Shown here in pieces: positions 5,001 to 27,720 of a stretch of DNA of 44,364 bases; the first letter of the stretch is position 1, and each line of letters starts with the position of its first letter. Location of the stretch: NCBI GenBank assembly GCA_000182565.2, contig KQ257459.1. One strand, written 5' to 3'. The translations under genes and the position numbers were made by a program. Source of the stretch: Spizellomyces punctatus DAOM BR117. Lineage: Eukaryota. The notes under the pieces were generated by a model that saw only the letters and a list, made by a program, of their open reading frames with translations, was not told where the DNA came from and did not search any database.

Positions 5001-8000
5001 TGCTACAGGATATCCAAAGGCAATATGTGAATATGCTTCCATACCAGCATACGCCATTAAGATCTATACAGAAATGGTCTGGTATGGCTAATGGGCTATT
5101 TGACACCATATTTGTGCTTCAAAAGACCGATAATGGTGGACACGGTTACGAGGACGAAATATGGAACTGGGTTGACACAGTTGATGAGGACGAGGTAAAT
5201 ATTCGACATTGTTACATTCATTCAACTTGCTTATGGATTATGTGCTTCTAGTATGCCATATCGATAGAGGTCGAACCCATTGCCACCAATGATACTGTTG
5301 TATTAAAAGCCATTTGCAAGAATGCCCTTTGTTCTCAAAGTCAATCCGAACTTTTAGTCGCCGAGTTCGAAGCCATCATGCTCGGAATTCTTCAACACCC
5401 TTCCAGCAATCCAAATCTACTGCACCAGTTGAACCTGCCGGGATCCGTACTATCTATCAGCCCAATGGCGCATTTACCAGAAACATCTCGGACTGGTGCC
5501 CTCTTCATGCATAGCTTCGTGGAGAATCAGGCGAACACCAATCCCACTGCTGTGGCTGTGAACTTTGTTTCGGAGATCACGAAATCTGGGGAAGCTCTCG
5601 GAGAGGAATATACTTATCAGGCATTGGACCGTGAAGCAAACCGTTTTGCCAATCTGCTACTCGCGAAGGGTCTTACATTGGGTGCCGAGGTGTCGCTCTG
5701 CGCGCCAAAGTCTCTGTCATGGTTTGCTGCATTGCTCGGAATATCCAAAGCCGGAGGCGTTTACGTTCCTATCGACCATGAGGCACCTGTGGATCGGAAG
5801 CGATACATCCTCAACGACGTGGGAAGTAAATATGTTGTCACAATTTCGTCTTTGGAGGTTGAATTGAAAAAGGTGGTACCTCTTGATACGGAATTCATTA
5901 TTCTCAACGACGATCAAACGAGAGCCCATCTTTTTGCCCAGTCAGATCTTTCGCCTTCAGTAGAACTCACGCCTTCGGATCTCGCATATATTCTTTATAC
6001 ATCTGGGACGACCGGCAGACCAAAAGGCGTACTAGTAGAGCATGCTAACGTAACGCACAGCATCGAAGCCCACCGTCACCTTATCAAATGGCATCCAGCA
6101 GCTCGGTTTCTGCAGTTCGCGTCATGCTCTTTCGATGTATCCATTTACGAGATGCTCTTTCCCTGGAGCGCGGGCATGTGCGTGTGCGCTGCAGATAAAG
6201 ATCTTCTTCTCAAGGACCTGGAATTGGCGTTCCGTGCCATGCATATCACACACGCAGAGTTAACCCCGAGCGTCGCTTCAATGGTTAAACGACAAAACGT
6301 GCCGCAACTGGAAGTGCTGCTTACAGGGGGCGAAGCTTTGACTCAGAATGTTTTGGAAGAGTGGGCAGATGGCGAAATGTTGTATAATGCGTATGGTCCT
6401 ACCGAAGCAACAATTGGGTGTACAATGTTGTGCGGAGTTCAGAAGTCCGCAAAAGTTTCGAACATCGGTCGTCCTTTTCCGAATGTTTTTGCCTGCGTAT
6501 TACCGGTTCATGGCGAGCGCCATCCGGTCTTGAAGGGTGCTACCGGCGAACTTTGTGTGGGGGGTCCGTTGGTGACCCGCGGATACCTTGGCCAACCGGA
6601 GTTGACGGCGGCGAAATTCATCAATTGGTCGCCAGTATCATCACCGACCTCTATCGAACGCCTTTACAGGACGGGGGACCATGTCCGTTTGATGGCAGAT
6701 GGCACATTGGAGTTTTTGGGTCGTGTGGACGATCAGGTCAAGATCAACGGCATCCGGATCGAGCTGGGCGAAATCAACAGCAGATTGCGGGCTGCGTCCA
6801 AAAATGTCATCAATTCCGTCACAACGCTAATAGGACGTTCTGGTGCTTTTAAGAGTGAATTGGTCGCTTTCCTCGTGATGGATACAGCTTTCTCAAAGGA
6901 GTGCGAGATTATCCTGTCGAATGAGAAGTTCAGAGAAATTCGTGAAAACATTGTCCCGGTGTTGAAGCGAGAGCTTCCTTTGTACATGGTTCCAAGCTTC
7001 ATTCTTCCTATTACCGCTCTTCCTCTAGGAACGACGGGCAAAGTGGACATAAACCGGCTGAGTGCGCTGTTCCAGAATCTTTCGCCAGAAGCTTTGCACA
7101 GTTGCCAAGCGCCGGACGACATATCTGCAAATGAGAGCTGGACGGACTTGGAGAAGGTTATACGTGACGCGATTGTCAACCAGCGAGAAATCACAGTCCA
7201 CCTCGTTAGTAGAACCAGCACGATTTTTGAGCTCGGCCTGGACTCTTTGAGCGCAATATCGTTGTCGGCCAGTTTGCGGAAAAAGGGCCTCGAGTTATCC
7301 GTGTCTGATATCATGCAGCATCCGACAATTTTGGAGATGGCAAAGTATTTGGAAGCGAGGGTAGACACCGGAGGACGCGAATCCATCGAATTATCAAGCT
7401 CATTGGATGTATTCGCCACATATGAGGAGCAGAGTAGGAAGCTGGCGGCAGAGAATCCTTCCTTGGCCGGAAATATCGAATGTGCCTATCCATGCCTTCC
7501 ACTACAGGAAGGAATGGTGGCGGAATGCATGAAGTCTGGCGGTGCATTGAACATCAACGAAATCACGTTGGACCTAGAACCATGGGTTGAGTTTGAGACG
7601 CTGAGGCACGCTTGGTTACAGTTGCAGGAGCAAACTGATATTTTGAGAACTGCTTTTTTTGCCATGAGCGATGGCAGCTACGGTCAGGCCGTGCTTGGCA
7701 GCAATAGTGGTTTCATAGCTTCTTTTGAGACGAAATCTTACGCGAGTCAGCCTAGTCTTTCGATACTCCTAGAACAACAGCGAAATCAAGTGGTCCAAGA
7801 CATGTACAACATGAAGCCACCAGTCAGCGCATGGGTGCTTCAAAACGAGAACTCAACGAATACGAGATTGTCTATTATAATTCACCACGCGTTGTACGAT
7901 GGTTGGAGTTTACCATTGCTCCTGAACGATTTCAAACGACTGTATCATGGTCAATGCGCTCCTCGGCGCCCGCTGTTTCGTGAGTTTGTTCGTTACGTGG

Positions 8001-11000
8001 AAAATATCGGGCACACCCAGGAGGAAGTGTACTGGAGACGAATATTACATGGCGCAACGAGCTGTCAATTCCCCGACCTTAGTGGGCGGCGCAAAGATAC
8101 GGATGGTAGTCCCCATTCATGCGAAGCTTCCAGACATCTGAGCGCTACCCGCTCAGAACTTGAAACCGCGGCTCGAGCTATCGGCGTTACTGTGCAGGTG
8201 TTGGTTCAAGCTGCGTGGGCCAAATTACTGTCGTACTACGTAGGCGAACCAGATGTGACCTTTGGACATGTTATTTCCGGCAGAACGGCTCCTGTGAGCG
8301 GAGTGGAGCAGATTGCTGGACCATGTTTCAACACCATTCCATGCCGTGTGAATCTCAGTGACAGAAAATTGACGAACAGGCAATTGCTGCAATCAATTCA
8401 AACCCATAATTCCACGGCCATATCGCACCAGCATGCATCTTTGAGGTTGATCAATAGATGGATCGGGGCGTCCACCGAGCAGCCACTGTTCAACACAATT
8501 CTTATATATCAGAAGACAGAGGGATGTTCCGCCGAAGATAATTTATCTCAATTGTGGAAAGAGGAGAAAGATGGTCAAGTTGAAATCGACGTAAGTTCCA
8601 TCCTGACACGCTGACTGGGTCCTCGTACAAAAGCACTCATTAGTCCCGAATTTAGTATCCTGTCTCGGTAGAAGTAGAGCCTCTTGCAAATAACAGGCTT
8701 GCTCTTCGCATATTGTGCCGTAGCGATGTAGTTCCAGAAGAACACGCGAACTTACTGGCACGACAGCTGGAATCCGTTTTGCTAGATTTGACACTCCGAC
8801 CAGACGGAGTTGCCGCGGATATCCCATTTGATGAGCAGGAGGTCGTTTCTATCTCTAACCCTACTCCAACCGTTGTGTCTGGCCTCCTTCACGGAGCCGT
8901 TGAAAAATATGCAGAAGAAAGCCCGAAAAAAATTGCCCTCGAATGGGCGATGTCGATATCCGACACCACCATCGATATGGAAACGTGGACATATGCAACC
9001 TTGAACGAGCAAGCAAATAAGATTGCGCATCTTTTGCTGTCGAAAGTTCAAAGCTGTGCAGTTGTGCCCATCTGCTTAGACAAATCCCCCCTCTCCTACA
9101 TGGCAATTTTGGGAGTGCTCAAAGCTGGATGCGCGTACGTTCCTCTCGACCCAGCACTCCCGCTTGACCGACGGCTGTTCATTGTGAAAGACACGAAGGC
9201 ACCCGCAGTACTTACCACTAGTCAATATGCTGCAGCGCTTCAAGGAGGGAAAGCGATGGATTCGTCCTTCGATATCATATCCCTGGATTCGGTAGATCTT
9301 CAAGGTCAATCCGCAAGAAACCCCCGAGTTGCGACAAATCCTTCGGATCTCGCCTACATACTATACACTTCAGGAACAACCGGTCTACCCAAAGGCGTCA
9401 TGGTCGAACATGGCAGCGCAACAGCGTGTTTGCACTCATTCCAGAGCATGTTACCGTGGCGTCCTGTATCACGTTTTCTTCAATTTTCATCGTTCTCCTT
9501 TGATGTTTCTATTTCAGAAACATTCATGCCGTGGCTCGGGGGCCACACGGTGTGCACTGCAAGTAAAGATACCCTGCTGATAGACCTAGAGCAAGCCATC
9601 CGCATGCTGAAGATTACTCATGCTGATCTGACCCCAACGCTGATTACCCTTCTTCATCGTGACCGCGTACCAGATCTGAGAGTTCTCATTACTGGGGGCG
9701 AGATGATACCGCAAAAGATATTGGATGAGTGGGCCGGATTGAACGATATATCTCTGTACAACGCGTACGGCCCAACGGAAACGACGATCAATTGTGCAGT
9801 CAACCGACAAGTGAAGCGATCCGCCAAACCTGCAAACATCGGACAGCCACAGTCGAGTTGCTCCATTTACATCTTGTCGCAAAGCCTACAGTGCATTCCA
9901 ATCGGTGGAATTGGGGAATTGTGCGTCGGCGGGATTCAAGTCGCTAGAGGATACCTAAATTTGCCTAAATTGACACAAGACAAGTTTTGCACATTCCTGA
10001 ATCCTCTTTCTGGAAAAGAGGAACGTGTGTACCGAACGGGAGATTTGGCGCGAATGCTACACGATGGAAGCATCGAGTTCATTGGCAGACTTGACGACCA
10101 GGTCAAGCTCAACGGTCTCCGAATCGAACTGGAGGAAGTGAATGCAGTACTCTCAGGCTCTGATCCTAACATTTCTAACGTTGCTACGCTGGTTTTGAGG
10201 AGACGCGAACAGCAAAACCATCAACTCGTTTCTTTCATTGCACTCGGAAATGAAAGTGGCGATTGCAAGATAATTAAGGGCGACTTGCATGCGAAGGTAT
10301 TAGAGAATGCGACGGATGCCGCCGCACGAAAGCTGCCGGCATACATGGTCCCGACACACATTCTGTTGATCAATACGCTACCTTTGGGCAAGACTGATAA
10401 GGTGGACCGCAAAGTCCTCGCTACCCTTTACACGGACATCCCCTCGGAAGTCCTGGATTCATGGGGAAGCCAGAATGGAGCCGATGGAATCTGGTCCGAC
10501 GAGGAGAGTCACATCAGGGACGCTTTGGGAGAGATAGCAAATGTGCCTTCAGATACGATCAGTCGTCATTCCTCCGTTTTCCAGTTGGGACTTGATTCAA
10601 TCAGCGTAATTCGCTTGGCATCGTTGTTACGAAAGCACGACATTACATTGACAGTGTCTGAAATCATGGGGAACCCGTCTATAGCACGTATGTCTCACCA
10701 TTTAAAGCATCGTCAGAACGGGATGGAATCAAGACGGCACAATATTGCTCAAGCGAGGAACATGATCGCAAACTTTGAGAAGCAAATCAAGCCTGCGTTA
10801 TTGGCGCGCTCGACGCAGGAGCAGAGCGATGCGATCATCTCTGTTTACCCATGTACCCCGCTTCAGGAAGGAATGTTGGCCGGTACATCGAAATCGGATG
10901 GCTTGTATATCAACCACTTTGTGTTTGAGCTGGAAGAGCACACCGACTCAGAACGCTTATTAGAAGCCTGGCGAAAAGTCATCGAGCAAAACGACATTTT

Positions 11001-14000
11001 TCGCACCAGCTTTCATCTCACCAATGATGAAACCTTTGTCTATGCCCAGGTGGTTAATGAAAAGGTTTGGATGCCCGTGAAGAACATTCAAATCCAGCAC
11101 GGCGGAGATTTCCCCGCCGCGTTCGATGAACATACGAAATGCAGCACAGCGACAATAGGAGATTTTCGCCGACCTCCACTTGGATTTGCCCTCGTACGAA
11201 GTCCATCTCAAGCCTGGCTCATCGTTTCTATACATCATGCTCTCTTCGATGGTTGGAGCTTTTCTCTTACCCTCACGGATGTCCAGGCGCATTATCGCGG
11301 AGTACCCCCACCTTTGCGACCTCAATTTCGATCATTCGTGGAGTCCACTGTGGGACAAGTTGAGGACAAATCTAAGTTGTTCTGGCAGGAAAGGCTAGCC
11401 CGGGCAAATATATCTGAATTTCCAGATAACCTTCATGGGAAGACGTTCAAAACCCACGAAGCCAGTGCACCTCAATTGGTGGAAATCTTTTCAGAAATTT
11501 CGTATGGCGAAGTTGCAACACGTTGTCGCGAGATGGAAGTCAGTGTTCAATCAGTAGGACAAGCGGCCTGGGCTCTCCTTCTGGCTGCGTATCTTGGCCA
11601 GAAGGATGTTATATTTGGCCACATTGTCTCCGGCAGATCAATTCCTGGCTCTGCAGCTGTCATTGGCCCAACATTGAACACCATCCCATGTCGCGTGCAA
11701 GTGGATAAGCATGCATCGAATCTGGATCTTGTTCGCCATGTACATCAATTCAACATTGAAGCCATCCCTTATTACCACACAAGCCTGCGGGCAATCATGA
11801 ACGCATTGGGAAGAAACAAAGATGCTAAACCATTGTTCGATACTATCTTCCTGTTCCAGCAATCGCACCAAGAAGTGCATACGGACGAAACTACGTTATG
11901 GAAAGAAATAGCCGGTCAGGCAGACGTTGATGTAAGTAGCTTTTGTCTGGTATTTAAGCGCATGAGTGACTGCTAATCAAAGGCCATAGTATGCAGTTAG
12001 CATCGAGTTGGAACCTAACGATGACGTCTTAGTGCTCCGCGCGGCATGCAGGCCGAGCCTGATGCCCGAGGATCAGCTGAATCTTCTCTTACGCCAACTG
12101 GATATGATTCTCAGGCATATCATCCAGGAGCCGCACGGAAAGATTGGCGATTTTAAAACACCGGCGCTCGATCTCATGTCTATTCAGCCGCGAAAGATCC
12201 CCGACTCACTGGTCCAGAAAAAGAGACGATCCTGGTTCTGTCCGCGGAACTTCAAAACAAATCACACCATCGATACGATGCATCAATTCATCGAGAAGCA
12301 CGCAGCCGCTTCACCGCACCGGATATGCTTGGAATTCGCTTCGTCGATCTCGAAATCTGAAATCCATAGTTGGACCTACCGTGAATTCAATTCCAAAGCG
12401 AACAAACTCGCACGTTTTCTGCGCAATTGTGGCGTTACCCGCAATATGTTGGTGCCGATTTGCCTCAAGCAATCTCCTTGGATGTATCTGGCTATCATAG
12501 CTGTTTTGAAGGCTGGTGCTGGGTATGTGCCCGTCGACCCGCAAGCACCGGCAAAACGGAAGACATATATCTTCTCGGATGTAGACGCGAGTTTCGTTCT
12601 TACTTCCCCAGACATTGCAGATATTATGGAGGAGCTTGAAGACGGGACACCGAGGCAATATATCTGCGTTGATGATTCTATCGAGGGTAGACTCAAGACG
12701 CTATCAAGTTCGAACCTGCCCAATAAGGTTACCCGAAATGACCTCGCGTACGTCATCTACACCTCGGGGACAACAGGGTTGCCCAAGGGCGTCATGATCG
12801 AGCACGGCAGCGCTGTAGTTGCAATCGAATCTTTCCAACGGCTAATTCCAGCTGACCAGCACGCGCGATTCCTTCAGTTTGCCTCATTTACATTTGACGT
12901 ATCGATTTTCGAGATGTTCTTCGCATGGAGTATGGGACTTACTCTGGTAACAGCGCCGCGGGATGTGCTGTTGGCTGACTTAGAGTTGGCAATGCGTGTG
13001 CTCAACGTCACACACGCAGATCTAACTCCAACGGTGGCCACATTAATTCGACGTAGTGCTGTACCATCAATTGAGCTTCTGGTGACAGGAGGAGAAGCCT
13101 TGAGCCAGCAAGTCCTAGATGACTGGGCTGGTACTTTGTATAATGCATATGGCCCTACTGAAGCCACAATCGGGTGCGTGCTGAGGCCAAGCGTATCAGC
13201 CGAGATCCGCCCAACCAACATTGGGCATGTATTCGACTCGTGCTCCGCTTTCGTCTTATCAGAGGATCTGAATGTTATACCACGCGGTGGTGTTGGTGAG
13301 CTATGTATCGGGGGACCGCAGGTTGCTCGAGGTTACTTGAAGCGACCGGATCTGACAGCGGAACGGTTCGTTTACTTGCCCTTGGCAAAAGAGAGGATTT
13401 ACAAAACCGGGGATTTCGTTAGAATGTTAGCCGATGGCTCCATTGAGTTTTTAGGACGACAGGACGATCAAGTGAAGCTCAATGGATTGCGTATAGAATT
13501 AGGCGAGATCAACTCTGTCATGTGCAAAGCACATCCCGACATCAAAGACGTGGTCACACTTGTGCTCAAGCACCCGCAACTGCAAAGAGAGCAGTTAGTC
13601 GCCTTTGTCGTCTTGAAGAGTGACTATAGGACGGCGGTGGAGCCTAAGATTATTGGTTCCCTTGCGACATCTACAATTTTGAAGGAAGCACTCAAAGCTG
13701 CTAGGCGAGCACTACCGCTTTACATGGTGCCGGCTCATGTCTTTTTGACAAGCCTGATTCCGCTCGGAAACACAGGTACTGGAATCTTCCTGAAATCGAT
13801 GAAAGTGTTGACGCTAATATCCGCCCCCTTCCCCCTTTTTCTTTTTTTCTCACTACAGGAAAAGCGGATCGTAAAGCTCTCTCGTATCTGTTCTATGACT
13901 TGGACGCGAATTCACTCCAAGCGATGCAGGTGCCGGACATCGATCGTCCTTGGAGCGAACTTGCAAGAGAGATCCGTCGCTGTCTTGCACAGGTCGCACG

Positions 14001-17000
14001 CGTACCAGTGGAAATGATTGGACAAGACTCATCCGTTTTCCAGCTCGGCCTAGACTCGATTAGCGCTATTCGTCTCTCATCGGAGCTGAAAAAAAGCGGG
14101 CTGAACATTGGCGTATCTGAAATCATGCGATGCTCAACAATTGCTTTAATGGAGTCGCATGTGCAAGATAGCCGTGACAAACACCACGAGGACGTCCAAC
14201 TGAAGAGGGATCGCGAAGCATTTTTGAACAAGTTTGTCGAGCGCCACCAACGCGGACTCGATGTTGATCTCAATGATGTTGTCGCAATCTATCCCTGTAC
14301 GCCGTTACAAGAAGCCATGCTAGTTGAAACCCTAAAGTCCACCAAACGCCCTTATATCAATCATATTCCGTTTGATCTGCATCCAAGTGTGGACGTGAAA
14401 CAGCTTGTTGATGCATGGCAGGCAGTCGTTGCTGCGAATGATATTCTCCGTACAAGCTTTCACCCTGTCGAAGATGATAGGTACGGTTATGCCCAAGTTG
14501 TTCAACGGGGAAGCACGGTTCATTTCATGGAGCGGCACCTGGAGCACGACGAAGATCTTCAAACCGTTATTAAGGAGCAGACTGACGTGATATTTAAAAA
14601 TGTGCGAGATCTACGACGACCACCTTTGGGCTTTGCCTTATTGCAGGGACCGATTGGTACCTGTTTGTTGCTTTCGATTCACCACGCTCTATACGATGGC
14701 TGGAGCTTGCCGCTGATCTTACAAGACGTGAGGCGCAAGTACAAAGGAGAACCCCTTTCAGACCGACCCCAATTTGTCACTCTTGTGAAGAGTATTCTGA
14801 CGGAGTCTGAAGAAGACTCCAAACGGCATTGGCTAGCACTGTTGGATGATTGCCATCCGTCTATTTTTCCCACAACCCTTTACGGGACCCATGCACCCTC
14901 TGAGTCTGATGTATCATTTTTTGCGTCGAGAGTGTGTGGCGTGGACGCTACCGACATATCAAAAATCTGCCAGAGTTTGGGTGTTAGCATGCAAGCTGTT
15001 GGACAGGCTGCATGGGGACTTCTCCTTGCTGCCTATCTAGGCGAAGACGATGTGGTTTTCGGTCATGTTGTATCTGGACGATCCGTACAAGTGGACGATG
15101 TTGGCGATGTCATTGGCCCTGCGTTCAACACGATACCAACACGAGTAAAGCTTGCGCAGTGTCGGACGTACGCAGATCTCCTGCGTGCGATTCACGCTGC
15201 AAATGTTTCGGGAGTGCCTTTCCAACACACCCCGTTGAGATCCATTGCCAGGTGGACAAGCCAGTCAGCATATGGTTGGTCCTTATTTGACACCATCTTT
15301 TTGTTTCAAAAAACCGAAGATAGTTCGGAAAGTGGTGAACCGTTGTGGGACATTGCCGAAGGCCATGCGGAAGTGAATGTAGGTAGTCTTTGTGCTGTTC
15401 AGTTGGACATGTGCTAAACTAAGGATTTTTCTACAGCATGCGGTCAGCATTGAGATGGAGCCCACCGGCAAGATTCTCCATCTTCGCGCATCCTGCCAGG
15501 CTAAAGTCATGCCGCATGCCCATTTGACGATGCTCTTAGAGCAGCTTGAGCGGATTATTAAGCGAATAATATCGTGTCCGGAAGAAAGTGTTAGAAGCTA
15601 CGGTATGAAAAGCACCTCACATCTGGCATCAGTACATGAACAAAAGCGCAAAGTGAAAACCTCAAGCATAACTACCCTGCACGGTTTCCTTGAGCACAAT
15701 GCATCTCGTCTCCCCACCCATCCCGCTCTCGAGTTTAGCGCTCCTGTTTTAGCCGACAACTGTGATACTACCATTTTCACCTATGCTGAATTAAATCGCA
15801 AGAGCAATCAACTTGCTCACTACTTTATAAGTAGAGGAGTAACGGCCAACACCTTTCTACCCATCTGCCTTGAGAAAGGAATATGGATGTATTTGTCGCT
15901 GCTTGCTGTCTTGAAAACGGGTGCGGCATACGTCCCCACGGCCCCGGAGATTCCTCCTGAGAGGAAGGAGTACATTTTCAAGGACGTAAATGCTCAATTC
16001 GTGGTCGCCACTGAGCCAGTGTCGACAGAGATTACGTGCGGCAATCCAGACGCGACAGTACTTGTCGTTGATGATCGGATGACAGAGATTCTTCGAGAGT
16101 TTCCTGACACGAATCCTGCTGTTCCCGTTTCGATATCCGACCCTGCGTATGTCATCTACACATCTGGAACCACTGGTGTTCCTAAAGGAGTGGCTATTCA
16201 GCACGACAGCGCAGTTGAGGCATTTACTTCATTCCAAGAACTCATTCCTTGGAATGCTACCTCACGGTTCCTTCAGTTTGCGTCTTTCACATTTGATGTA
16301 TCAATTTTTGAAATGTTCTTTGCTTGGAGTACCGGCATCACTTTGGTTTCAGCACCAAAAGACTATTTGCTGGCTGACTTAGAGCAAGCGATGAAGAAAT
16401 TGAGAGTGACGCATGCAGACTTAACGCCAACGGTCGCTACGATGATCAGACCTGACAACGTTGCTCTTGATATACTCGTAACTGGTGGCGAAGCGTTGAC
16501 GCAGCAGGTCTTGGATGATTGGGCTGGGAAGGGCGTCTTATACAATGCTTACGGACCAACGGAAGCAACCATTGGATGCACCATGCGAAAAGTCGATTCT
16601 AATACGAGTCCATTGAATATTGGCATGCCATTTAATTCCTGCTCAGCTTACGTGTTGAACGGCCCCGAAATCCTTCCCCGTGGGGCCATTGGAGAACTCT
16701 GCATAGGCGGCCCTCAAGTAGCTATGGAGTACATCAATAATCCAAGTCTCACCTCTGAAAAGTTTGCCATCTTGCCGGCAACCAACGAACGCATATACCG
16801 GACTGGGGACTATGTTCGTATGCTCGCAGAAGGATCCATCCAATTCTTGGGGCGGCAGGATGAACAGGTCAAAATGAACGGTCTTAGGATTGAATTAGCA
16901 GAGATCAGTTCTGTCTTAGCAAAAGCCGACGCCGCATCAATTTGCGACGTTGTTACGATGGTTTTAAAACATCCGGCTCAGGAAAGGGATCAGCTTGTTG

Positions 17001-20000
17001 CTTTTGTGAGCTTACTTCCGGGAAGGGATGAGACGGAGAGTTTGCTCGCTGAAGAATGTAAAATTATCGGTTCGGCGTTCGAGTCTCCAGTGTTGAAAAC
17101 AGCGATGGAGATAGCCGCTCGAAAGCTTCCCATTTATATGGTTCCGGGGCTAATTTTCTTGGTGAACAAAATTCCCCTTGGAAATACCGGTAAGAGCAAT
17201 CACACGAACCGCTTAGGTCTGGCAGACAACTAAACTCATCAATACAGGCAAGGCGGATCGGAAAAAGTTGGCACAAATATATCAAGGATTAGACATCACC
17301 TACCTGCGGTCTGCCGGCGCCAACGAAGAATCAGATGATAATTGGACGCAGACGGAAAAGGTGATTCGGCAATGTCTCTCGGAGGTATCAGGGGCTCCTT
17401 TGCAATCTATCACCCGACACAATACGTCCATTTTCCAACTTGGACTTGACTCCATCAGCTCGGTTAAGTTATCTTCAAAGCTCAAGAGCCATGGCATTGT
17501 TCTACCTGTACCCGACATTATGAAATTCCCCACCGTAGCTCGACTATCGAGTCGGCTGTCGGAATTTAATGCTGATTTGGAAAAGGAGAAAGTGGAAATG
17601 GCCCAAGCTGCAAAGCGTGAGAAGATTCTTGTGGACTTCGACGCAAAGTTCACGCCTGTTGTTCTGGAAGAGTCTGGCTTGGAGGATGGCGCTGTGGCTG
17701 CTGTCTATCCTTGCAGCCCGTTACAGGAAGGAATGATTGTCGAGACCTTGAAATCCGAAGGGAGGCATTATTTGAACCACGCCATTTTTGAGCTCAAATC
17801 AGCGGTGGATGTGCAGAGGCTGTTGAATGCATGGGAGTCGGTCATTCGAGCCAACGACATCCTCAGAACAGGTTTCTATTCCGTTGACAGTCCTTTATGC
17901 GGCTATGCGCAAGTTGTTCTCTTGAAGTCCAAGATGCAGCTTACCGTTGAGTATCTCTCCAGGAATGACCAGTTGCGGCCTGCGTGCGAAAGGCACATCC
18001 AAAATGTAACTCGTTCGATGCTCGATTTACGCCAGCCACCAATTGCTTGTGCAGTGCTTCATGCTCCCCAGCAGAAGTGGCTGGTCGTGACGCTTCACCA
18101 TGCGTTGTACGATGGTTGGAGCTTGCCTTTGATATTAGACGATGTTCGAAAAGCGTACATGGATCTGGAGCTGACAAGGGTGCGACCACAATTCAAAGAA
18201 CTTCTGAAGTATATCTTGATGGATTCTCGAGTGGATGCCCAAGAACACTGGAGCAATGTCCTCACGGGTTTTACACCAACGGTGTTTCCAGATACCCTGC
18301 TCGGTACCGCATATATATCCGGAACATCCAAGACCTCCACCCATTTCGAATCGAGGATAACTGAATTGAAGGTTGAAGAAGTGGCGGCCGCGTGTCAGAC
18401 ACTAAATGTCAGCATGCAATCATTTGGGCAAGCGGCCTGGGGTCTGCTCCTGGCTGCCTACACCGGCGAAGCCGATGTCATATTCGGGCGAGTGATATCT
18501 GGTCGCTCCATCCCCCTTGACGGAGCTAATGATGTTATTGGGCCATCCTTTAATACGATCCCCTGTCGCGTCCAAACGGAAAATGTCTCCAATGCACAGT
18601 TGGTCACCGCTGTCCACAAGGCAAATATTGATGCCATTCCCTATCAACACACTCCCTTGTCGTGGATTCTAAAATCGACAGAGAAGAATCGCGATGGCCT
18701 GCCGCTGTTTGGAACACTATTTTTGTTCCAAGTCGGATCTGGTGAAAATGAAGATGACGATCACCCACTCTGGACAACGATTGGAGGAGAGGCAGAAGTG
18801 AATGTGAGTTAATGAAAGTTACTTCAGTCAAATGCAACCCCCCTTAACTGAGTCATGCGCATCTGTTACCAGTATGATGTTACCTTGGAAATTGAGCCGA
18901 CAGGCCCCAATTTTGCGGTCAGAGCTACATGCAAAACCTCCATCATGCCGACATCCCATCTCTCTACTCTTCTGCTGCAGTTCGAACACATCCTCACAAA
19001 CCTTATCCGAAATCCAGATCGCCGCCTTTTGCCGTTGGATGATCCGTTGCCTGACAGAATGATGTCCATCATACCGCGGACTCGCGACGCCAACGTTGGT
19101 GGCATGCTCACCGATCAACCACTCTATCTGCATACATGGGTGGAACATAACGCCCAATCGCAGCCCGATGCGATGGCGTTACAATTTGCGAGAAGCACGT
19201 CGCTAACGCAATATCCAGAAATTGAGACAATTACATACGATATGCTCAATCGGAAGTCCAATCGTATAGCGCACTTCTTGATTTCTCGCGGAATTCGTCC
19301 CGAGACCTTTGTCCCGCTTAGTATGGACCGGTCTCCTTGGTATGTGTTATCGTGAGTTTCGCATTCGATGTAAGAAGTCTTACATTTTCTTTCCTTATAG
19401 GATGTACATATGCATTCTTGGGGTACTCAAAGCTGGAGCAGCGTACGTTCCCATGGATCCTGATGCCCCACCCGAGAGGAAACGGTTCATGCTCTCTGAC
19501 GTTGGAGCAAAAATTGTCCTCACAACTGCAAGTGATGCAATGAACCTCAGGACTTGCTGTCCGGATGAGATAGAAGTCATCTGTGTTGATGAGTTGGACG
19601 ATCTCATCTCAACATACCCACAGACAAACCCACATGTTGAAGAGTTCCCTCAGTCAACGCTCGCATACCTGATTTACACTTCAGGCACCACCGGGACGCC
19701 AAAGGGCGTAATGATCGAACACCACTCTGTGGTCGAAGCCATTCTCTCTTTCCAAGAACTTATACCGATAAGTGGAACTGCCCAGGCACGATTCCTCCAA
19801 TTCGCTTCATACACTTTTGACGTGTCGGTTTTCGAAATGTTTTATACATGGAGCATGGGAATGGTAGTTGTGAGCGCGCCAAAGGACGTGCTGCTTACCG
19901 ATTTAGAGAATGCTATCCAAATCCTCGGTGCCACCCATGCAGATTTGACCCCAACCGTAGCTGCCATGGTGAGGCCGGAAAATGTACCAAGCTTGAAGGT

Positions 20001-22659
20001 GCTGGTGACGGGAGGCGAGTCTCTGACCCAGCATGTAGTTGATGCGTGGACTGGAGATGGAGTCACACTTATCAATGCTTACGGACCGACCGAAGCCACG
20101 ATTGGCTGTACCATGTTTGTCGGAGTCGAGTCTACCACCCAACGAAATAATATTGGACAAGTGTGGCCGTCTTGCTCGGCCTATGTTGTCTCCACATCAC
20201 ACGATCTGCTTCCGCGCGGTGCAGTTGGAGAATTATGTGTCGGCGGTCCACAGGTTGCCCGAGGATACCTCAACCGCCCCGATCTCACTTCTTCAAAATT
20301 TATCCAGCTACCTGCTGGCGGGGAGAGAGTATACTGCACTGGCGATATTGTGCGCTTACTTCCAGACGGATGCGTACAGTTTCTGGGACGGCGGGATGAT
20401 CAAGTTAAACTAAATGGATTGCGCATTGAACTGGGCGAAATCAATGCGGTAATTACAAAATCGGATCCTTCTATAACGGACACGGTTACAATGGTAGTTA
20501 AACATCCGAAGCAAGTTCGAGATCAGATCGTTTCCTTTATCGGATGCGACAGGGATGTTAGGCAAATCCAGATAGACAAGTTCGAGAACATGCTGCTGAA
20601 AGATGACGATGGAACTTCTACCAAACTTATTTCAGCTGCGTTGCATGCGGCGCGACGTCACCTGCCGGCGTACATGGTTCCCTCGCTCATCGTTCCACTG
20701 ACTGGTCTGCCGCGAGGGGCAACTAATAAAGTAAACTCGTCTGCCCTTGCCCGAATGTTCAAGAATTTGGATTTCAAGCTGGTTGCCAGTCTTACGAAGC
20801 AGATGGAAGACAGCGACGGCGGCATTTCGGGCGATCTTGCCGAAACAACTTGGACAGACCTGGAGAGCGCCATCCGGAATGTTTTGGCCGAAGTCTCTTC
20901 ACTCTCTCTGGACGAAATTACGCTGCGAGCCTCAATTTATCATCTTGGATTGGACTCCATCAGTGCGATTCGCGTATCGTCCAAGCTTCGTGGATTGGGT
21001 ATTCACATCAGCGTTGGAGAAATACTTCGGCAAAAGACCATCAAGAACATTGCCGACTTTTTAACTGAAAGAGACAGACTTCCAGAATACAAACATCAAC
21101 CTGGTGCTACCCGGTTGATGGCGCGTGAACTCGTCAAAAACTGGATTGGAGAAGATTTCCTCAGTATTGACCTTCCCAACCGGTTATCGACATCAATGCC
21201 TGCCGTTGCAGGCGTATATCCAGCGACGGCGGGTCAAATCTTCACCCTTTCCTCCTGGCATATGTCCCAAGGCAGATACTTTATGCCATCCTTCATCTTC
21301 ACATCGCGCGATGCTATTGATGTACGCCAGCTCGAAGAAGCGTGGATTGCACTCTTGAAGCGTCATGAGATCCTGCGCACCGGTTTCCTTTCCACATCCT
21401 CACAAACGGCACCCTTTGTGCAAATTGTGTTTGCTGATCCAGTCGTAAACTGGTCGTGCGAAGCTTTTGACATACCATTGGAGGAGAATATCGTTAAAGA
21501 GCGTGTCGAGTACGAAAAAATGCAACCTGCGGTGGTTTCTTCACCTCCTGTACGCCTTCATTGCATGGCATTCCAGGATCGCGCAGCTTTGGTGCTTACC
21601 ATTCACCACGCATTGTATGATGGATGGAGCATTCCGCTTCTTCTTTCAGATCTTTCGACCCTTTACCGCAAGCAGCCATTGGCGGAACATAGTGTACGCT
21701 GGTCCGACTACCTTGAGTACGCTTTCGAGACACGTCAATCAATGGATAATAGCCCTCAGCAAGAATATTGGCGTAAAATGCTGGATGAGACAGGGACAGC
21801 CTTCTTCCCACATTTGAACGCCTCGTCCCCAAATTCGACAGACACTGCTCTTTATGTGCCCGTTGCAATCCCTAATGCTGCAAAATATACGTCAGCGTGC
21901 CAGCGGAAAGGAATCACCCTTCATTCCCTATTCCTTGCCGCCTGGGGACAACTTCAAGCCAAATACACCAATGCCAACCATGCATTATTCGGACTTTACC
22001 ATTCCGGACGATCCATTGGTATCAGCGACGTTGATACCCTGCGTGGTCCGTGCGTGAACGTCCTTCCCTTCCAGGTCCGGAATGCAAGAACATTGAGTGT
22101 GTTGGATTGCGCCAAAAATGCGCAGGACGAGTTGGCAATGCAGAATGAAGCAGTGCCTTGCGTGTCGATGCATGATGTTCAAGTGTGGAGCGGTTATCCA
22201 GGCCAGCCAATCGTTAATGTATTTGTTAACTTTTTGATGTTTCCAAATGGTGGAAATGATGGAGATGATGCGAAAGTGGAACTTTTTAAGGCATGCCGGG
22301 TAAGGCGCTGTTGTGATATAGGATCTCTCTATCGATGGCACTGTGTATTTACATCTATTTCACTCTACCAGATGCGAGACTGGGAGACACAAAATGCCCC
22401 AATACCAGCCTCTCACAAAACCGGACTCGACGGATGCCTTGCAGCTCCTCTTCAGGTTAGTTTTTCCATCTGCTCAATCTTTCCGTGCGATAACCGCTAA
22501 ACATTTACTTCACCATAGAATGATATTGATTTGGAAGTCGCTGTTCACAATGATGTCATCAGTTTAGGTCTTTACTGTCCCTCGCATGTTATGTCTATGG
22601 ATCAGGCGGGAAGCGTTGTAAAACAATTATGCGATAGTGTTATAAATGCATTAGATTAG
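711..22659 (+). CDS. Hexamodular non-ribosomal peptide synthetase, ferrichrome-type siderophore synthetase family (SidC/Nps2/Sib1-like), ~7,049 aa; architecture relicC-relicC-(A-T-C)x6
   Basis: Exons 711-1139, 1228-1809, 1877-5194, 5252-8590, 8656-11931, 11990-13775, 13859-15378, 15437-17189, 17248-18803, 18873-19339, 19401-22299, 22372-22455, 22519-22659 join in frame through GT-AG introns (21,150 nt). Six copies each of A3 YTSGTTGxPKG, A5 NAYGPTE, A7 Y(R/K/C)TGD, T-domain G(L/I)DS and C-domain HHAL(F/Y)DGWS. No TE or R domain. The first two exons and the 22300-22371 intron are less certain. Confidence 0.93.
2120..5400 (+). other. NRPS module 1 (A-T-C), approximate bounds
   Basis: YTSGTTGRPKG; T-domain Ser in GIDS at 3863-3865; HHALFDGWS; pocket residues read by eye as DVFDFIAISK. 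Confidence 0.9.
5500..8790 (+). other. NRPS module 2 (A-T-C), approximate bounds
   Basis: YTSGTTGRPKG; GLDS Ser at 7244-7246; HHALYDGWS; pocket DVYELGAIGK. Confidence 0.9.
8880..12130 (+). other. NRPS module 3 (A-T-C), approximate bounds
   Basis: YTSGTTGLPKG; GLDS Ser at 10597-10599; HHALFDGWS; pocket DVSDIGAINK. Confidence 0.9.
12275..15580 (+). other. NRPS module 4 (A-T-C), approximate bounds
   Basis: YTSGTTGLPKG; GLDS Ser at 14056-14058; HHALYDGWS; pocket DVFDVGAIGK. Confidence 0.9.
15675..19015 (+). other. NRPS module 5 (A-T-C), approximate bounds
   Basis: YTSGTTGVPKG; GLDS Ser at 17451-17453; HHALYDGWS; pocket DVFDVGAIGK. Confidence 0.9.
19125..22659 (+). other. NRPS module 6 (A-T-terminal C), approximate bounds
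   Basis: YTSGTTGTPKG; GLDS Ser at 20956-20958; divergent C1 motif YPATAGQ; HHALYDGWS; pocket DVFDVGAIGK; protein ends after this C domain. Confidence 0.9.
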
Positions 22660-24477: not shown

Positions 24478-26139
24478 GTTGCACGACTTTGATTGTCACT
24501 CACTGTAGAGACGTCCTGGACGTTATTGAGTTGCGGAGGTCGAAGGAGTGGCAGTCTGTCAAAATCTGCCGAGTACGGTGCTATCCGCGTACTCGGTGAG
24601 GGCAGCTGTGTGTCGTGAGTGTCCATAAGACACAAGCGTCAAGACTAACGAAGGACCAGCTTCGTAGGATGGGTGAGTATAAATTCCCCGGGTATACGAG
24701 TGAAAATGAAAAATGACGACGAGATTGTTGAGGATTAAGCGCACTGGGTTCCGACGGCCCACTGCTCAGGGGGGGACGCGCGGACCCAAGGTACGCAACC
24801 GAAGTTCATGACGCTCAAACGCTGTCAACAAAGCTCTCCCTGCCAGCCAAAAAAAGTGTTCCAACACTTGTTCATCCCGTGTTGGTTTCTCTTTTTTTTG
24901 ATAATGTTTTGGGTGTATTCTTTGGTTATAGTTGAATGTTTTAAATTGGGTGTTTGGATCTAATGGTAAATGTGTTGCGTAAAATTCCTAATTTTAAAAA
25001 GTAATTATATCCAAACTGAAAACCAGGTAGCCGGTTGGTGGCTCAGCGGCTCAGCTGTTCCGATTACTCAGCGACAGTGTCTCAATTTCCCTGAGGAGAA
25101 TTTTTTTTCAAAAGGTTAAATGAAGCGCGTGCCGCGTGTGTCCGCGGCACATTGCCTAATATGGAAGGCAACCCACGGATCTGGCCGGAATGGTGTGTTG
25201 GTTCTAAACGCTCAATAACTGCCCAACACTGTTTCAGAATCGCCAACCAGGGCGGCAAAAATCGGGAGAGCCGCCAGTCCATCGGAAGCGCTTCATTTGA
25301 TTATCCACCGTTCCCTAGGGCCAAAAGATTAAGCTTTTTTTTAAAGCTAAATTATTATAGACTTTGGATTGGTGTCATTAGAAAAATCAGCTATGAACTT
25401 GCTATTAGCAGACAATGGAAGGGATACACTTGTCGTCATGCTCACGCTACTCTCATAAATGAACTTTAACGTGTTGTTGCTGTTCTTGTAGATGGAATTG
25501 CGTAGTGTCCACAAAAGTGCCATGGCTTACATATTTGGTCTGAAAGCCTTGCCGCAATAACCCTAGGAAAAGCTCACACTGTTCGTTGTGTTTTGAGGCA
25601 GTTCAAGAGCTCACCGTATCCTGACATGCCTGGTTCCCCCCTTCCTGTGCTGGGCATCAACACTCGCGCATGTCGTAGACTTGGGATTTTGAACAATGCC
25701 ACTCATGCCACGCCTTCCCAACCAATCATCAGCATCAGCCGTGGCTGTGCCACAGACGCGATTTTCGTCAGGAGCGCATCGGACGTTCGTCCTGGCTGTC
25801 GTCGTCGTCGAACGACCGTTTCTTTTCCAGACACACACATACACACGCCATACATGGACAGAGCAGGTGGAGAGCCGCTCGCCGCGTGGGGTACTAACCA
25901 CCCCCTCTCTCACTTTATACAAGTCCCCTGCCTGTCTCCGGCTCGTCTACGTTTAGGCTCCTTGGCGAACGCTCCGAGACTGCAAAAAAAAAAAGTGACA
26001 CTAGAAAGCTGCAAATAGTGTAGCACCTTTATCTATTGAATCTATCCCCCAATATTCTCGATATAGACGAGTACCGTATACATAGACTAGCACCGGCTTG
26101 CGTCCTTTGCACTCTCGGGCTTCCACCGATTTGTTTGTC

Positions 26140-27720
26140 ATGTCTGCGTCAGCCCTTCTCGCGTCGGCCACGCATCCAACGGAGCTCTATGCTTTGTTCA
26201 AATTCCTCGCTACCCCATCACCAAAGCTCGAAGATGCAACCGCCGCGGCTTCCCCCTCAGTTTCAGATCCTTCCTATTCGCGTAGGATGTGCTATCACTT
26301 TCTCAACCTCACTTCTCGATCATTTGCCCGAGTGATTCAGGAGCTTGATGCGGAACTTCGGCATCCTATTTGCATTTTTTATCTAGTTTTGAGAGGTTTG
26401 GATACAGTTGAGGATGATATGACAATACCGTTGGAGAGGAAGAAGGAAGTACTGCAAAATTTTCACAAGAGTATATATCAGCGAGGGTGGACATTCACTG
26501 AAAATGGAGAGAGTGAGAAAGATCGGGAGCTCCTAGTTAAGTTTGACGTTGTGGTGAACGAATTTCTCAGCTTGAAGGAGAGGTGAGATTGCTCCAACTC
26601 TGAAAATTTCGTGATTTGTCTGGGCGAAAAACTAACAATGGTCCCTTTCTCTAGCTATCAGACTGTCATTGCCGACATAACCAAGCGCATGGGTCACGGA
26701 ATGTCCGACTTCGTTTCCCGACCACTCCAAACGGACAAATCCATTCATCACATCGAAATCACAACCAAGGCAGATTACAATCTATACACTCACTACGTGG
26801 CTGGCCTTGTCGGTATAGGCTTGACAGAGCTATTTGTCGCCTCCGGCTTGGAACGGCCGTCGCTCGGCGCCCCGCACAATATCGAACTGGCGAATGAAAT
26901 GGGACAATTTCTGCAAAAAGTCAATATTCTCAAGGACTTTTTGGAGGATCTAGGGGAAGGGCGAGTGTTCTGGCCAAAAGAGGTATGGAGCAAGCACGTT
27001 CCCAAAGGAGCACCAGCCGAAGCGCTTGCCAAAGAGGAAAATATTGCGCGAGCGCTTGCATGCCTGAACGAGCTTGTGGTTGATGCGTTGGAGCATGTGC
27101 CGAACTGTCTAGAGTATATGAGCTGCATACAGAATCAGACCGTATTCCAGTTTTGCGCTATTCCTCAGGTTTGTCGTTGATTGTCTTTGCTGTTGTTAAT
27201 GCAGGCACTAAACTCTTGCGGTACGGCCCACAGATGATGGCCATCGCAACGCTGGATCGCTTTTTCAATGACCCCACGTTGTTTCGCACAACGGGAACTA
27301 AGATTCGTCGCGGCTTAGCAGTTAAGCTAATGTTAAAGTCTGGAGACATGGATAGTGTAAAGCGCACCTACGAGCAATATGCGTTGTCCATAAACAGAAA
27401 GAACGCACAACGCGTTGGTACCAACGAGCAGGATGATAGCTTTTTGAAAGTCAGCACTACATGCGCAAAGGTGGGCACCGACTCTTTCGTGTTGTCAGTT
27501 TCAGATAACCTTAACCATATTGTTATAGATTGTTAGATGGATCCACACCCACGATCAAAAGTATGGGCTGGTCACCAATGGCCGGCGTAAGGACTCTGGC
27601 TACGGTTCAACGCTTGTAGATCAATCGAGTAATTCTGGAGGTTACAGCTTTATTGTAGTTATTGGTGTAGTCATGATTGGACTTGCACTGTCGTTGGGAA
27701 TGCTTCCAGCCGTTCAATGA
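26140..27720 (+). CDS. ERG9: Squalene synthase (farnesyl-diphosphate farnesyltransferase), ~461 aa
   Basis: Exons 26140-26582, 26655-27168, 27234-27470, 27529-27720. Motifs TSRSFARVIQEL, FYLVLRGLDTVEDDMTI, YTHYVAGLVGIGL, MGQFLQKVNILKDFLED, FCAIPQMMAIATL; C-terminal hydrophobic anchor FIVVIGVVMIGLALSLGML. Confidence 0.95.

Follow-up and report, generated by a model that had tools for sequence, protein, structure and literature searches.

Ferrichrome synthetases are the textbook case of non-linear logic among fungal nonribosomal peptide synthetases (NRPSs), in which one adenylation (A) domain feeds three carriers. For about twenty years the explanation has been that a colinear six-module ancestor, unseen within the family, lost A domains; such a hexamodular (A-T-C)x6 ancestor was proposed in Schwecke 2006, as cited in Bushley 2008. 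In the NPS2 lineage a single AHO domain presumably feeds three carriers, and the AHO assignment of the reference domains of that lineage was inferred in Bushley 2008. AHO loading has been proven biochemically for A3 of SidC, the ferricrocin synthetase; according to PMC10192304 (Nat Commun 2023), this enzyme was reconstituted in vitro and makes a cyclic hexapeptide with three consecutive L-AHO residues that is released by the terminal C domain, with A3 preferring L-AHO and loading T3, T4 and T5 in an inter-modular manner and with module 2 acting iteratively. The discussion of the same paper describes Sid1 (AS2488059; Acremonium persicinum ASP2397 family), which has six A domains, including a dedicated A domain for each of three L-AHO residues, which makes a product with three L-AHO plus three backbone residues and whose phylogeny points to an origin separate from that of the ferrichrome family. 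A 2008 survey found no ferrichrome synthetase candidate in chytrids (Bushley 2008), and a full-text literature search linked Spizellomyces or Chytridiomycota with ferrichrome synthetases only in that survey and in one unrelated paper.

The window analyzed here, a stretch of 44,364 nucleotides, carries an NRPS gene on the plus strand (positions 711-22659). The spliced model has 13 exons (711-1139, 1228-1809, 1877-5194, 5252-8590, 8656-11931, 11990-13775, 13859-15378, 15437-17189, 17248-18803, 18873-19339, 19401-22299, 22372-22455, and 22519-22659) separated by 12 GT..AG introns of 57-88 nt each, the least secure being intron 1 (1140-1227) and the in-frame intron 11 (22300-22371), and it yields a 21150-nt coding sequence, whose sole stop is terminal, and a product of 7049 aa with the architecture C-remnant-(A-T-C)x6. 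On the plus strand between 1877 and 22497, Pfam returned 6 AMP-binding, 6 PP-binding, and 6 Condensation domains. The A domains, all on the plus strand like the other features of the gene, lie at 2099-3655 (A1), 5480-7042 (A2), 8857-10401 (A3), 12248-13863 (A4), 15650-17252 (A5), and 19101-20730 (A6, split by the intron at 19340-19400), and core motifs were intact in A4, A5, and A6. In the last three modules the carrier domains T4 (13942-14166), T5 (17334-17561), and T6 (20842-21066) each have the motif GLDSI, and HHALYDG is found in C4 (14230-15637), in C5 (17646-19070), and in the terminal condensation domain C6 (21154-22653), the presumed cyclizing release domain. Read contigs from four runs of one sample were identical to the window and unspliced across the introns at 13776-13858 and 17190-17247; they therefore behave as DNA and are silent on expression and on the splice model.

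A condensation-domain remnant at the N terminus (1393-1641, equivalent to positions 208-282 of the 452-position C profile) could be taken as a sign that the gene or some of its modules are decaying and inactive, and a similar N-terminal partial C is present in the chytrid relatives. We consider decay very improbable, however, since the 21150-nt frame stays open to its terminal stop once the 12 canonical introns are removed, since none of the six copies of motifs A3, A5, A7, A8, and A10, of HHxxxDG, or of the carrier serine motif is damaged, and since the orthologue P0241, an annotated chytrid protein of 7021 aa, has the same architecture and is 90.7% identical over 7051 columns with 32 gap positions.

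Pocket codes were read from the motif anchors FDxS, TP(S/T), GGE, NxYGPTE, and GxxxK, with a GrsA numbering that we take to be that of Conti 1997 and Stachelhaus 1999. By these anchors A4, A5, and A6 all had the code DVFDVGAIGK, and the codes of A1, A2, and A3 were DVFDFIAISK, DVYELGAIGK, and DVSDIGAINK. The D235 equivalent, the end of position 331, and the K517 equivalent lie at 12896-12898, 13174, and 13861-13863 in A4, at 16295-16297, 16576, and 17250-17252 in A5, and at 19819-19821, 20106, and 20728-20730 in A6. Profile-HMM alignment of 651 and then 1398 A domains returned the same first nine code positions as the anchors, and the same profile columns yielded the bacterial codes DAWTIAAVC, DILQLGLIW, DVWHISLVD, and DFWNIGMVH, which we take to be the canonical Phe, Gly, Ser, and Thr codes, indicating that the column mapping is sound. 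The identity of the three pockets, seen by eye in an earlier sequence-only reading, was thus borne out by both procedures. Its interval for the three pockets, 12893..20110, does start at the F of FDVS in A4 and reach past position 331 of A6, but the K517 equivalent of A6 falls outside it. Among the 382 columns that vary among the six A domains, A4, A5, and A6 agreed in 103 (27%), and the chance of agreement at all five variable code positions was p ~0.0014, a rough value that assumes independent columns. Over 16 wider pocket positions A4 equaled A5, but A6 had Y instead of F at 243 and I instead of Y at 320. Exact DVFDVGAIG was found in 21 of 1398 A domains and 12 of 379 proteins, the carriers being the window NRPS, P0241, nine other chytrid proteins, and one Saitoella protein.

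An identical code could also have arisen as a side effect of gene conversion or of a recent tandem duplication, without functional meaning. In keeping with this, A4 and A5 are each other's nearest relatives within the NRPS (58% identity; sisters at 99 in the 66-row tree) and have an intron position in the A10 motif in common, the K517 equivalents lying directly 3' of the introns at 13776-13858 in A4 and 17190-17247 in A5. Pairwise identity among A4, A5, and A6 was nevertheless 52-58% at the amino acid level and 54-57% at the nucleotide level, none of the nine code residues had one codon common to all three domains, and synonymous-codon identity was no higher in the pocket segment (30-40%) than elsewhere (32-34%). 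In addition, A5 has its own orthologues in other genera once more chytrids are placed in the tree (Phlyctochytrium arcticum A4, 100/89; Nowakowskiella A5, 96/90; bootstrapped-tree supports here and below are ultrafast bootstrap/SH-aLRT). The recent-duplication reading was rejected on the codon evidence, with no near-identical DNA tract found across the pocket segments, and we give it almost no weight. The low identity and the lack of a common codon at any code residue indicate that the pocket identity is old and selected rather than a recent copy; A4, A5, and A6 are ancient paralogues with one retained pocket.

The pocket was compared with the codes in Table 2 of Bushley 2008, in which Spsib1 A3 has DVLDIGFIGK, ChNPS2 A4 has DVLDIGGIGK, FgNPS2 A3 has DVLDIGAIGK, and the A. 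nidulans SidC AHO code is DPLSTGAIGK. DVLDIG(G/F/A)IG was found in 142 of 1398 extracted A domains. The code DVLDIG(A/G)IGK, given in the earlier reading for Nps2/SidC, therefore describes the NPS2 lineage but not A. nidulans SidC. The domains A4-A6 matched FgNPS2 A3 at 8 of 10 code positions and at 14 of 17 extended positions, departed from the NPS2-lineage Dikarya code in having F instead of L at 239 and V instead of I at 299, and matched a T. reesei AHO-type domain at 13 of 16 pocket positions. Judged from these alignments, A4-A6 carry the chytrid version of the AHO pocket known from the NPS2 lineage.

When the module-1 exon was used as the query, the best 120 of 2852 scored matches had fungal names or no name, with chytrids first and then proteins named by their sources as SidC, ferricrocin, or ferrichrome synthetases. 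For the A4 exon the best match among proteins of 1043-2975 aa was P0001 (42% identity; code DVLDIGGIG). Other A4-exon matches in this size range were mostly multi-module bacterial NRPSs (30-42%, summed scores), P0001 and P0064 being the informative exceptions. The chytrid proteins of this NRPS family are deposited solely as "hypothetical protein." One of them, P0242 of Rhizophlyctis rosea, is also (A-T-C)x6, with codes DVFSIMAIV, DASVVGAVM, and DIATYGAVL in modules 1-3 and DVFDVG-IG, DVFDVGAIG, and DVFDIGAIG in modules 4-6. Nowakowskiella P0245 has DVFDIGAIG in module 4 and DVFDVGAIG in module 5, and of the three Phlyctochytrium arcticum domains corresponding to A4-A6, two read DVLTIGAIG and DVYNIGAIG. 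Across the chytrid orthologues, DVFD(V/I)GAIG was present in most of the last three modules, and the A2 and A3 codes drifted. The conserved late pockets and variable modules 1-3 of P0242 and P0245 thus mirror the variable tripeptide and three AHO residues of ferrichrome.

The bootstrapped A-domain tree comprised 66 ferrichrome-type rows and a thin outgroup sample of 10 rows, taken from a bacterial NRPS and a fungal NRPS of another kind, and corresponds to a 104-row set minus 28 rows (Paenibacillus, Anabaena, og254, Trichophyton, JGI 'ferricrocin synthase', dik258, Fimicolochytrium, and Thoreauomyces); the NPS1/SidC lineage is absent from the A-domain trees. The ferrichrome-type A domains, including all six from the window, split from the 10 outgroup rows at 100/100, and a larger quick tree with 22 outgroup rows supported this split at 99. 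An AHO super-clade of 41 rows, containing A2-A6 and the Dikarya AHO domains, was supported at 97/93 in the bootstrapped tree and at an SH-aLRT of 90 in the 104-row quick tree. In a 66-row quick IQ-TREE, one of three ML trees, the Gly-type clade was nested inside the group and the AHO super-clade was not recovered, and in FastTree the deep nodes had low local supports. Conclusions were drawn from the bootstrapped tree and the 104-row quick tree. A1 was placed in the Gly-type clade (97/95) as the sister of third-module A domains from Dikarya NPS2 enzymes (DMYDYISFC). A3 belonged to subgroup Y (87/98), where it paired with Rhizophlyctis A3 (DIATYGAVL) at 100/97, and A6 clustered with the final A domain of the other chytrid synthetases (SH-aLRT 95 in two quick trees, a weaker 88/62 in the bootstrapped tree). 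In a quick tree of 91 C domains, C6 lay in a clade of 12 rows together with the terminal C domains of NPS2-type enzymes from chytrids and Dikarya (SH-aLRT 99), and the terminal C was the only end unit with clear chytrid-Dikarya orthology; its tree placement thus makes C6 an orthologue of the last C domain in ferrichrome synthetases.

Because A2 and A3 lie in the same AHO clade, clade membership alone is no proof of AHO loading, and more than three modules might load ornithine-derived residues, with A2, and perhaps A3, still activating AHO or an N5-substituted ornithine akin to it. In the product a single small residue would in that case be followed by four or five ornithine-derived ones, a departure from the classical 3 + 3 ferrichrome. 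Besides the position of A2-A6 within the super-clade, this would be in line with the placement of A2 in subgroup X (99/96), which is the sister of the Dikarya AHO domains (X plus Dikarya AHO, 89/85) and has exact DVFDVGAIG in 4 of the 5 other tree enzymes outside the orthologue group. Moreover, A2 retains an AHO-like deep pocket with G301, A322, and G331, its three changes are conservative (F239Y, D278E, and V299L), and it pairs with Nowakowskiella A2 (DVFELGAIG) at 100/97, so that DV(Y/F)ELGAIG is kept between the two. Within the orthologue group, on the other hand, A2 and A3 show widely divergent codes (DASVVGAVM, DVYESGSIT, and DIATYGAVL), which is at odds with a conserved role in AHO loading, positions 239 and 331 of A3 are S and N, and three hydroxamates suffice for iron; we know of no natural hexapeptide with four or five AHO residues. 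More than three AHO modules are therefore unlikely in our view. The pocket code match, the AHO clade, and the conservation among orthologues together leave A4-A6 as three putative dedicated hydroxamate modules that are well supported by homology. The proposal in the sequence-only reading of three such modules, colinear with the product, accordingly stands on the shared code and the AHO clade, but a strict 3 + 3 division does not follow, since A2 and A3 are in that clade too.

The surroundings of the gene were searched as 98 six-frame ORFs of at least 75 aa outside the NRPS gene, and no ornithine N-hydroxylase, acyltransferase, or siderophore transporter was found in the 21.7 kb downstream and 0.7 kb upstream. 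Siderophore genes are not always clustered. A minus-strand frame at 1-405 was discarded as a gene, having no Pfam match and not being gene-like. The lack of a hydroxylase or acyltransferase gene in the window would suit a pocket that binds a substrate other than AHO, such as plain ornithine, lysine, or another long side chain, in which case the product would be a cyclic hexapeptide but no hydroxamate siderophore. The accessible part of a 2023 review mentions only siderophore transporters for Chytridiomycota, and the 2008 survey had no chytrid synthetase to report (Bushley 2008). Fungal codes are also poor predictors: the abstract of Bushley 2008 states that the substrates of these fungal enzymes could not be deduced from the 10-residue code, and PMC10192304 likewise reports poor prediction. 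A non-AHO substrate nonetheless seems a doubtful alternative, as the A domains and the terminal C nest among ferrichrome synthetases, 14 of 17 pocket positions equal those of an AHO-assigned domain, and siderophore genes need not lie in a cluster.

The gene probably encodes a ferrichrome-type siderophore synthetase, colinear throughout, in a Spizellomyces-like chytrid. In the mechanism that we propose, A1 would be of the small-residue (Gly-type) kind, and A2 and A3, of AHO-type descent, would have been re-tuned to other substrates in this orthologue group. A4, A5, and A6 would each adenylate N5-acyl-N5-hydroxy-L-ornithine and load their own carrier domains, so that inter-modular loading by one A domain would be unnecessary; C3-C5 would attach the three hydroxamate residues to the tripeptide from modules 1-3, and C6 would cyclize and release the hexapeptide, whose three consecutive hydroxamates would bind Fe(III). 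Since the last three modules have one AHO-type pocket, a separate loader for each iron-binding residue seems likely, in place of the shared loader of molds. Such an enzyme suggests hydroxamate siderophore synthesis in zoosporic fungi and offers natural, matched A-T-C units for engineering, and a chytrid family with complete modules and an AHO-type pocket in three consecutive modules makes the ancestor hypothesis directly testable.

On the strength of its domain order and homology, the gene represents a living, colinear relative of the six-module ancestor put forward in 2006-2008. The order of its modules in the trees is not the ancestral 1-6, however: A1 corresponds to ancestral module 3, A2 and A3 to the first two AHO modules, and A4 and A5 are extra copies near the last AHO module. 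The hexamodular form may therefore be partly rebuilt; Dinochytrium P0246 and Gaertneriomyces P0243 have a module order closer than that of the window NRPS to the proposed ancestor. We suggest tentatively, as a reading that could well be right, that colinear chytrid synthetases with one A domain per AHO make ferrichrome-type hydroxamates and that the single AHO domain of Dikarya, the orthologue of subgroup X, is the survivor of three. If so, the terminal T-C-T-C units of Dikarya would be relics, stripped down from modules like the last ones in the window, the gene family would be living evidence for the 2006-2008 hypothesis, and the origin of ferrichrome synthesis would predate the chytrid-Dikarya split. 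In the window gene, A2 and A3 would then have been re-tuned and the last AHO module copied twice, restoring three.

Compared with the described systems, a PDB search with A4 recovered A3 of SidN (3ITE; E 2.4e-70, A4 residues 10-506 versus chain 24-528), which activates cis-anhydromevalonyl-hydroxyornithine and has a deep, glycine-rich pocket like that of the window AHO-type domains, but which is no closer to A4 than bacterial GrsA (1AMU; E 9.2e-77) or TycA (7.6e-82). SidC relies on inter-modular loading and iteration, whereas the window NRPS on paper needs neither, and the A. nidulans SidC AHO code, DPLSTGAIGK, differs from DVFDVGAIGK. Sid1, compared by its description in PMC10192304, is the one published colinear ferrichrome-like synthetase that we found mentioned; the window NRPS instead nests with the NPS2 type. 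The closest named relatives, among the best 120 of 2852 matches in the whole-module search, are the NPS2-lineage synthetases (S. pombe Sib1, C. heterostrophus NPS2, and F. graminearum NPS2; types III-V of Bushley 2008). Like these, the window NRPS has A domains of one family (100/100 against the outgroups used), an AHO-type pocket (DVFDVGAIGK versus DVLDIGxIGK), an orthologous terminal C, and an A1 related to their third-module A domain. Unlike them, it belongs to a host of the phylum Chytridiomycota, it is without a Ser-type (DVFSVAGNI) domain, and it has an A domain in every module, whereas an NPS2-lineage enzyme carries three or four A domains in all and terminates in T-C units that lack one. 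T-C units lacking A, the architecture of types I-VI, are absent from the window NRPS, all six modules of which are complete A-T-C; this excludes the published types I-VI but not the family, because the proposed ancestor is itself colinear. As in that hypothetical ancestor, outlined in Bushley 2008 under 'Evolution of domain architecture', there are six complete modules with an AHO-type A domain in each of the last three, and the chytrid enzymes retain A domains where the Dikarya enzymes have bare T-C units.

The NRPS was encoded by a single very long plus-strand gene whose frames were split by short introns, as seen from six-frame ORFs and Pfam matches (six AMP-binding, six PP-binding and six Condensation domains). 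Twelve GT..AG introns of 57 to 88 nt were positioned by eye and by comparison of paralogous modules, giving a coding sequence at 711-22659 (+; 21150 nt spliced, 7049 aa, one terminal stop). Profiles made from the window's own domains resolved the layout as c-(A-T-C)x6, in which c is an N-terminal condensation-domain remnant, and motifs A3, A5, A7, A8 and A10, the carrier motif G(L/I)DS, and HHxxxDG were intact in all six copies. Against P0241, a 7021-aa protein from Spizellomyces sp. 'palustris' deposited at NCBI as "hypothetical protein", the model showed 90.7% identity over 7051 aligned columns (32 gap positions); the two agreed in architecture and in all six pocket codes. Seven of the 12 introns (1810-1876, 5195-5251, 8591-8655, 11932-11989, 15379-15436, 18804-18872, and 22456-22518; +, all phase 0) occupied a shared position in the C-terminal part of the condensation domains, directly before Y.(V/I)S.E.EP; both the N-terminal remnant and the last C domain carried it, and it was apparently copied together with the modules.

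Standard motif anchors, whose GrsA numbering we take to be that of Conti 1997 and Stachelhaus 1999, gave the codes DVFDFIAISK for A1, DVYELGAIGK for A2, DVSDIGAINK for A3, and DVFDVGAIGK for A4, A5 and A6 alike. Profile-HMM alignment of sets of 651 and 1398 A domains returned the same first nine residues. Since these columns yielded, for bacterial domains, the established codes for Phe, Gly, Ser and Thr, the column mapping was considered valid. Thus, the identical pocket that the sequence-only reading had aligned by eye, between the F of FDVS in A4 (12893) and just past position 331 of A6 (20106), was confirmed by both procedures (by the latter at nine positions). Over a wider pocket of 16 positions, A4 and A5 were still identical, and A6 deviated at 243 and 320.

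Pairwise, A4, A5 and A6 shared 52 to 58% protein identity and 54 to 57% DNA identity. Among the 382 variable columns of the alignment, the three agreed in just 103 (27%), which gives a very approximate p of 0.0014 for agreement at all five variable positions of the code. At none of the nine pocket positions did all three domains use one codon, and codon identity at conserved residues was 30 to 40% in the pocket segment versus 32 to 34% elsewhere. Because the pocket codons differed and codon identity was not raised, recent duplication or gene conversion was excluded as the source of the identical code, which indicated that the pocket is maintained by selection on the protein. An intron in the A10 motif, between GNTG and KADRK, was common to A4 and A5 (13776-13858 and 17190-17247; +, phase 1), whereas A6 lacked it and was instead interrupted near its start (intron 19340-19400), which fits A4 and A5 as the closer pair.

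The sequence-only reading had put the Nps2/SidC hydroxyornithine pocket close to DVLDIG(A/G)IGK. This held for the NPS2 lineage of Dikarya ferrichrome synthetases, for which the available part of Bushley et al. 2008 (PMC2644324) assigns to N5-acyl-N5-hydroxyornithine (AHO) the codes DVLDIGFIGK (Spsib1 A3), DVLDIGGIGK (ChNPS2 A4), and DVLDIGAIGK (FgNPS2 A3), but not for Aspergillus nidulans SidC, listed there with DPLSTGAIGK. A4 to A6 carried the same residue as FgNPS2 A3 at 8 of the 10 positions of the code and at 14 of the 17 in its extended form, with mismatches at 239 (F/L), 243 (F/W), and 299 (V/I). Among 1398 A domains, DVLDIG(G/F/A)IG occurred in 142 and exact DVFDVGAIG in 21. The latter came from 12 of 379 proteins, namely, the window's, P0241, one from Saitoella complicata, and nine other chytrid proteins (Spizellomyces punctatus, Powellomyces, Thoreauomyces, Fimicolochytrium, Rhizophlyctis, Gaertneriomyces, Phlyctochytrium arcticum, Nowakowskiella, and Dinochytrium).

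Maximum-likelihood A-domain trees were then compared (one bootstrapped, 76 rows, LG+G4; two quick, 104 and 66 rows). The bootstrapped tree separated the ferrichrome family from outgroups (100/100, ultrafast bootstrap/SH-aLRT) and divided it into one Ser-type clade, two Gly-type clades, and an AHO super-clade of 41 rows (97/93) that held the Dikarya AHO domains together with A2, A3, A4, A5 and A6. This super-clade was recovered in the 104-row tree (SH-aLRT 90) and not in the 66-row tree, where a Gly-type clade was nested inside it. A4 and A5 grouped with domains 4 and 5 of Rhizophlyctis and Nowakowskiella and domains 3 and 4 of P. arcticum (82/90), A5 having clear orthologues (100/89 and 96/90). 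A6 joined the A domain that comes last in P. arcticum and in Rhizophlyctis (88/62) and, in both quick trees, its counterpart in the other chytrid enzymes (SH-aLRT 95). A1 grouped first with its orthologues' first domains and then with Dikarya third-module Gly-type domains (97/95). Modules 4 to 6 are, on this reading, old duplicates of an AHO-type module. A quick tree built from 91 C domains placed C3 (10783-12190), C4 (14230-15637) and C5 (17646-19070; all +) in one 15-row clade (SH-aLRT 99) with C domains that in other chytrids follow the second AHO-clade A domain, of subgroup Y, which suggests that the duplicated unit was C-A-T and not A-T-C. C6 clustered (12 rows, SH-aLRT 99) with the C domains that end the chytrid and Dikarya enzymes.

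The module-1 exon was searched among proteins of 1937 to 5000 aa. The best 120 of 2852 matches carried, without exception, fungal names or none; chytrids, Saitoella, Tuber and Pyronema came first, and many later ones were source-named SidC, ferricrocin synthase or ferrichrome siderophore peptide synthetase. The source-named synthetases inspected had the NPS2-type codes DVFELIMIH/DVFSVAGNI/(DMYDYISFC)/DVLDIGxIG and a T-C-T-C end. P0122 of the early-diverging ascomycete S. complicata (4676 aa) read C-A-T-C-A-T-C-A(DVLDIGAIG)-T-C-T-C-A(DVFDVGAIG) and then ended, and thus seems to retain, behind a bare T-C unit, another A domain of the AHO clade whose code is the chytrid one. Longer chytrid proteins were added by exhaustive representative search. 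Rhizophlyctis rosea P0242 was (A-T-C)x6, its first three codes not of AHO type and its last three DVFDVG-IG, DVFDVGAIG and DVFDIGAIG; Nowakowskiella P0245 had six T-C units, with DVFELGAIG (A2), DVFDIGAIG (A4), DVFDVGAIG (A5), and two partly matched A domains; P. arcticum P0244 had five modules. In the Dinochytrium, Powellomyces and Cladochytrium proteins, each of the last three modules had an AHO-clade A domain. A second, five-module ferrichrome-type synthetase was present in Spizellomycetales (S. punctatus P0121 and Gaertneriomyces P0243), ordered Gly-type, Ser-type, and three AHO-clade A domains (the last three DVFDVGAIG, DVSDAGAIG and DVFLVGAVG in P0243). Its identity to the window's protein was only about 37 to 39%, indicating that two paralogous families coexist; the P0121 model (4914 aa) terminates within the fifth A domain.

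The last three modules of Rhizophlyctis and Nowakowskiella kept DVFD(V/I)GAIG while codes in modules 1 to 3 varied, the pattern expected of a ferrichrome (variable tripeptide plus three AHO residues); P. arcticum deviated in two of the three corresponding domains. Strictly colinear assembly was therefore held most likely, with A4, A5 and A6 each loading its own carrier with AHO and C6 cyclising the chain. We consider it reasonably probable that A4 to A6 are three dedicated AHO modules. Both A2 (subgroup X, 99/96, sister of the Dikarya AHO domains, 89/85) and A3 (subgroup Y, 87/98) descend from AHO-type domains, and A2 still looks like one, which leaves a small probability that the product carries four or more residues derived from ornithine. 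The proposal of one A domain per hydroxamate, in colinear order, was thus upheld in part: the conserved pocket and clade favor it, A2 and A3 are AHO-descended, and we infer the A4-A6 substrate, the acyl group, the A1-A3 substrates, and the cyclisation step.

No hydroxylase or transacylase gene was found within the 44,364-nt window. A two-exon squalene/phytoene synthase (26086-27177, +), an L7Ae-family ribosomal protein (31699-32004, +), and a Zn2Cys6 fungal transcription factor (33285-35876, +) had no obvious tie to siderophore synthesis. A rhodopsin-family 7TM receptor ORF (29226-29777, -; PF00001, E 1e-11) belongs to a family unusual in fungi. Pieces of a CEP104 homologue with TOG and zinc-finger domains lay in several exons (37182-40940, +); CEP104 is a protein of cilia and flagella, consistent with a zoosporic host.

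The 2008 survey, in its available part, reported no candidate in chytrids (Bushley 2008, PMC2644324). Full-text literature searches on Spizellomyces and ferrichrome, and on Chytridiomycota and ferrichrome synthetase, yielded nothing else relevant, and the part of the chytrid siderophore and nonribosomal peptide literature examined described no such enzyme. A colinear (A-T-C)x6 ancestor was already proposed (Schwecke 2006, as cited in Bushley 2008; Bushley 2008, PMC2644324, in part), so what is new is a colinear ferrichrome-family member, in chytrids. According to the trees, this six-module gene is not just the ancestor preserved unchanged: modules 1 and 2 of the ancestral enzyme seem to have been lost, two AHO domains to have been re-tuned, and the final module to have been triplicated. 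The sole published colinear enzyme found mentioned, Sid1 for AS2488059, is of different evolutionary origin according to the description in the available part of PMC10192304. SidC, the ferricrocin synthetase, has been shown to charge T3, T4 and T5 from a single A domain, A3 (same source, in part), whereas an own A domain per carrier is proposed here. The published ferrichrome synthetase types, as covered in the part of Bushley 2008 (PMC2644324) available, all contain T-C units without an A domain, in contrast to the six complete A-T-C modules of the window's protein.
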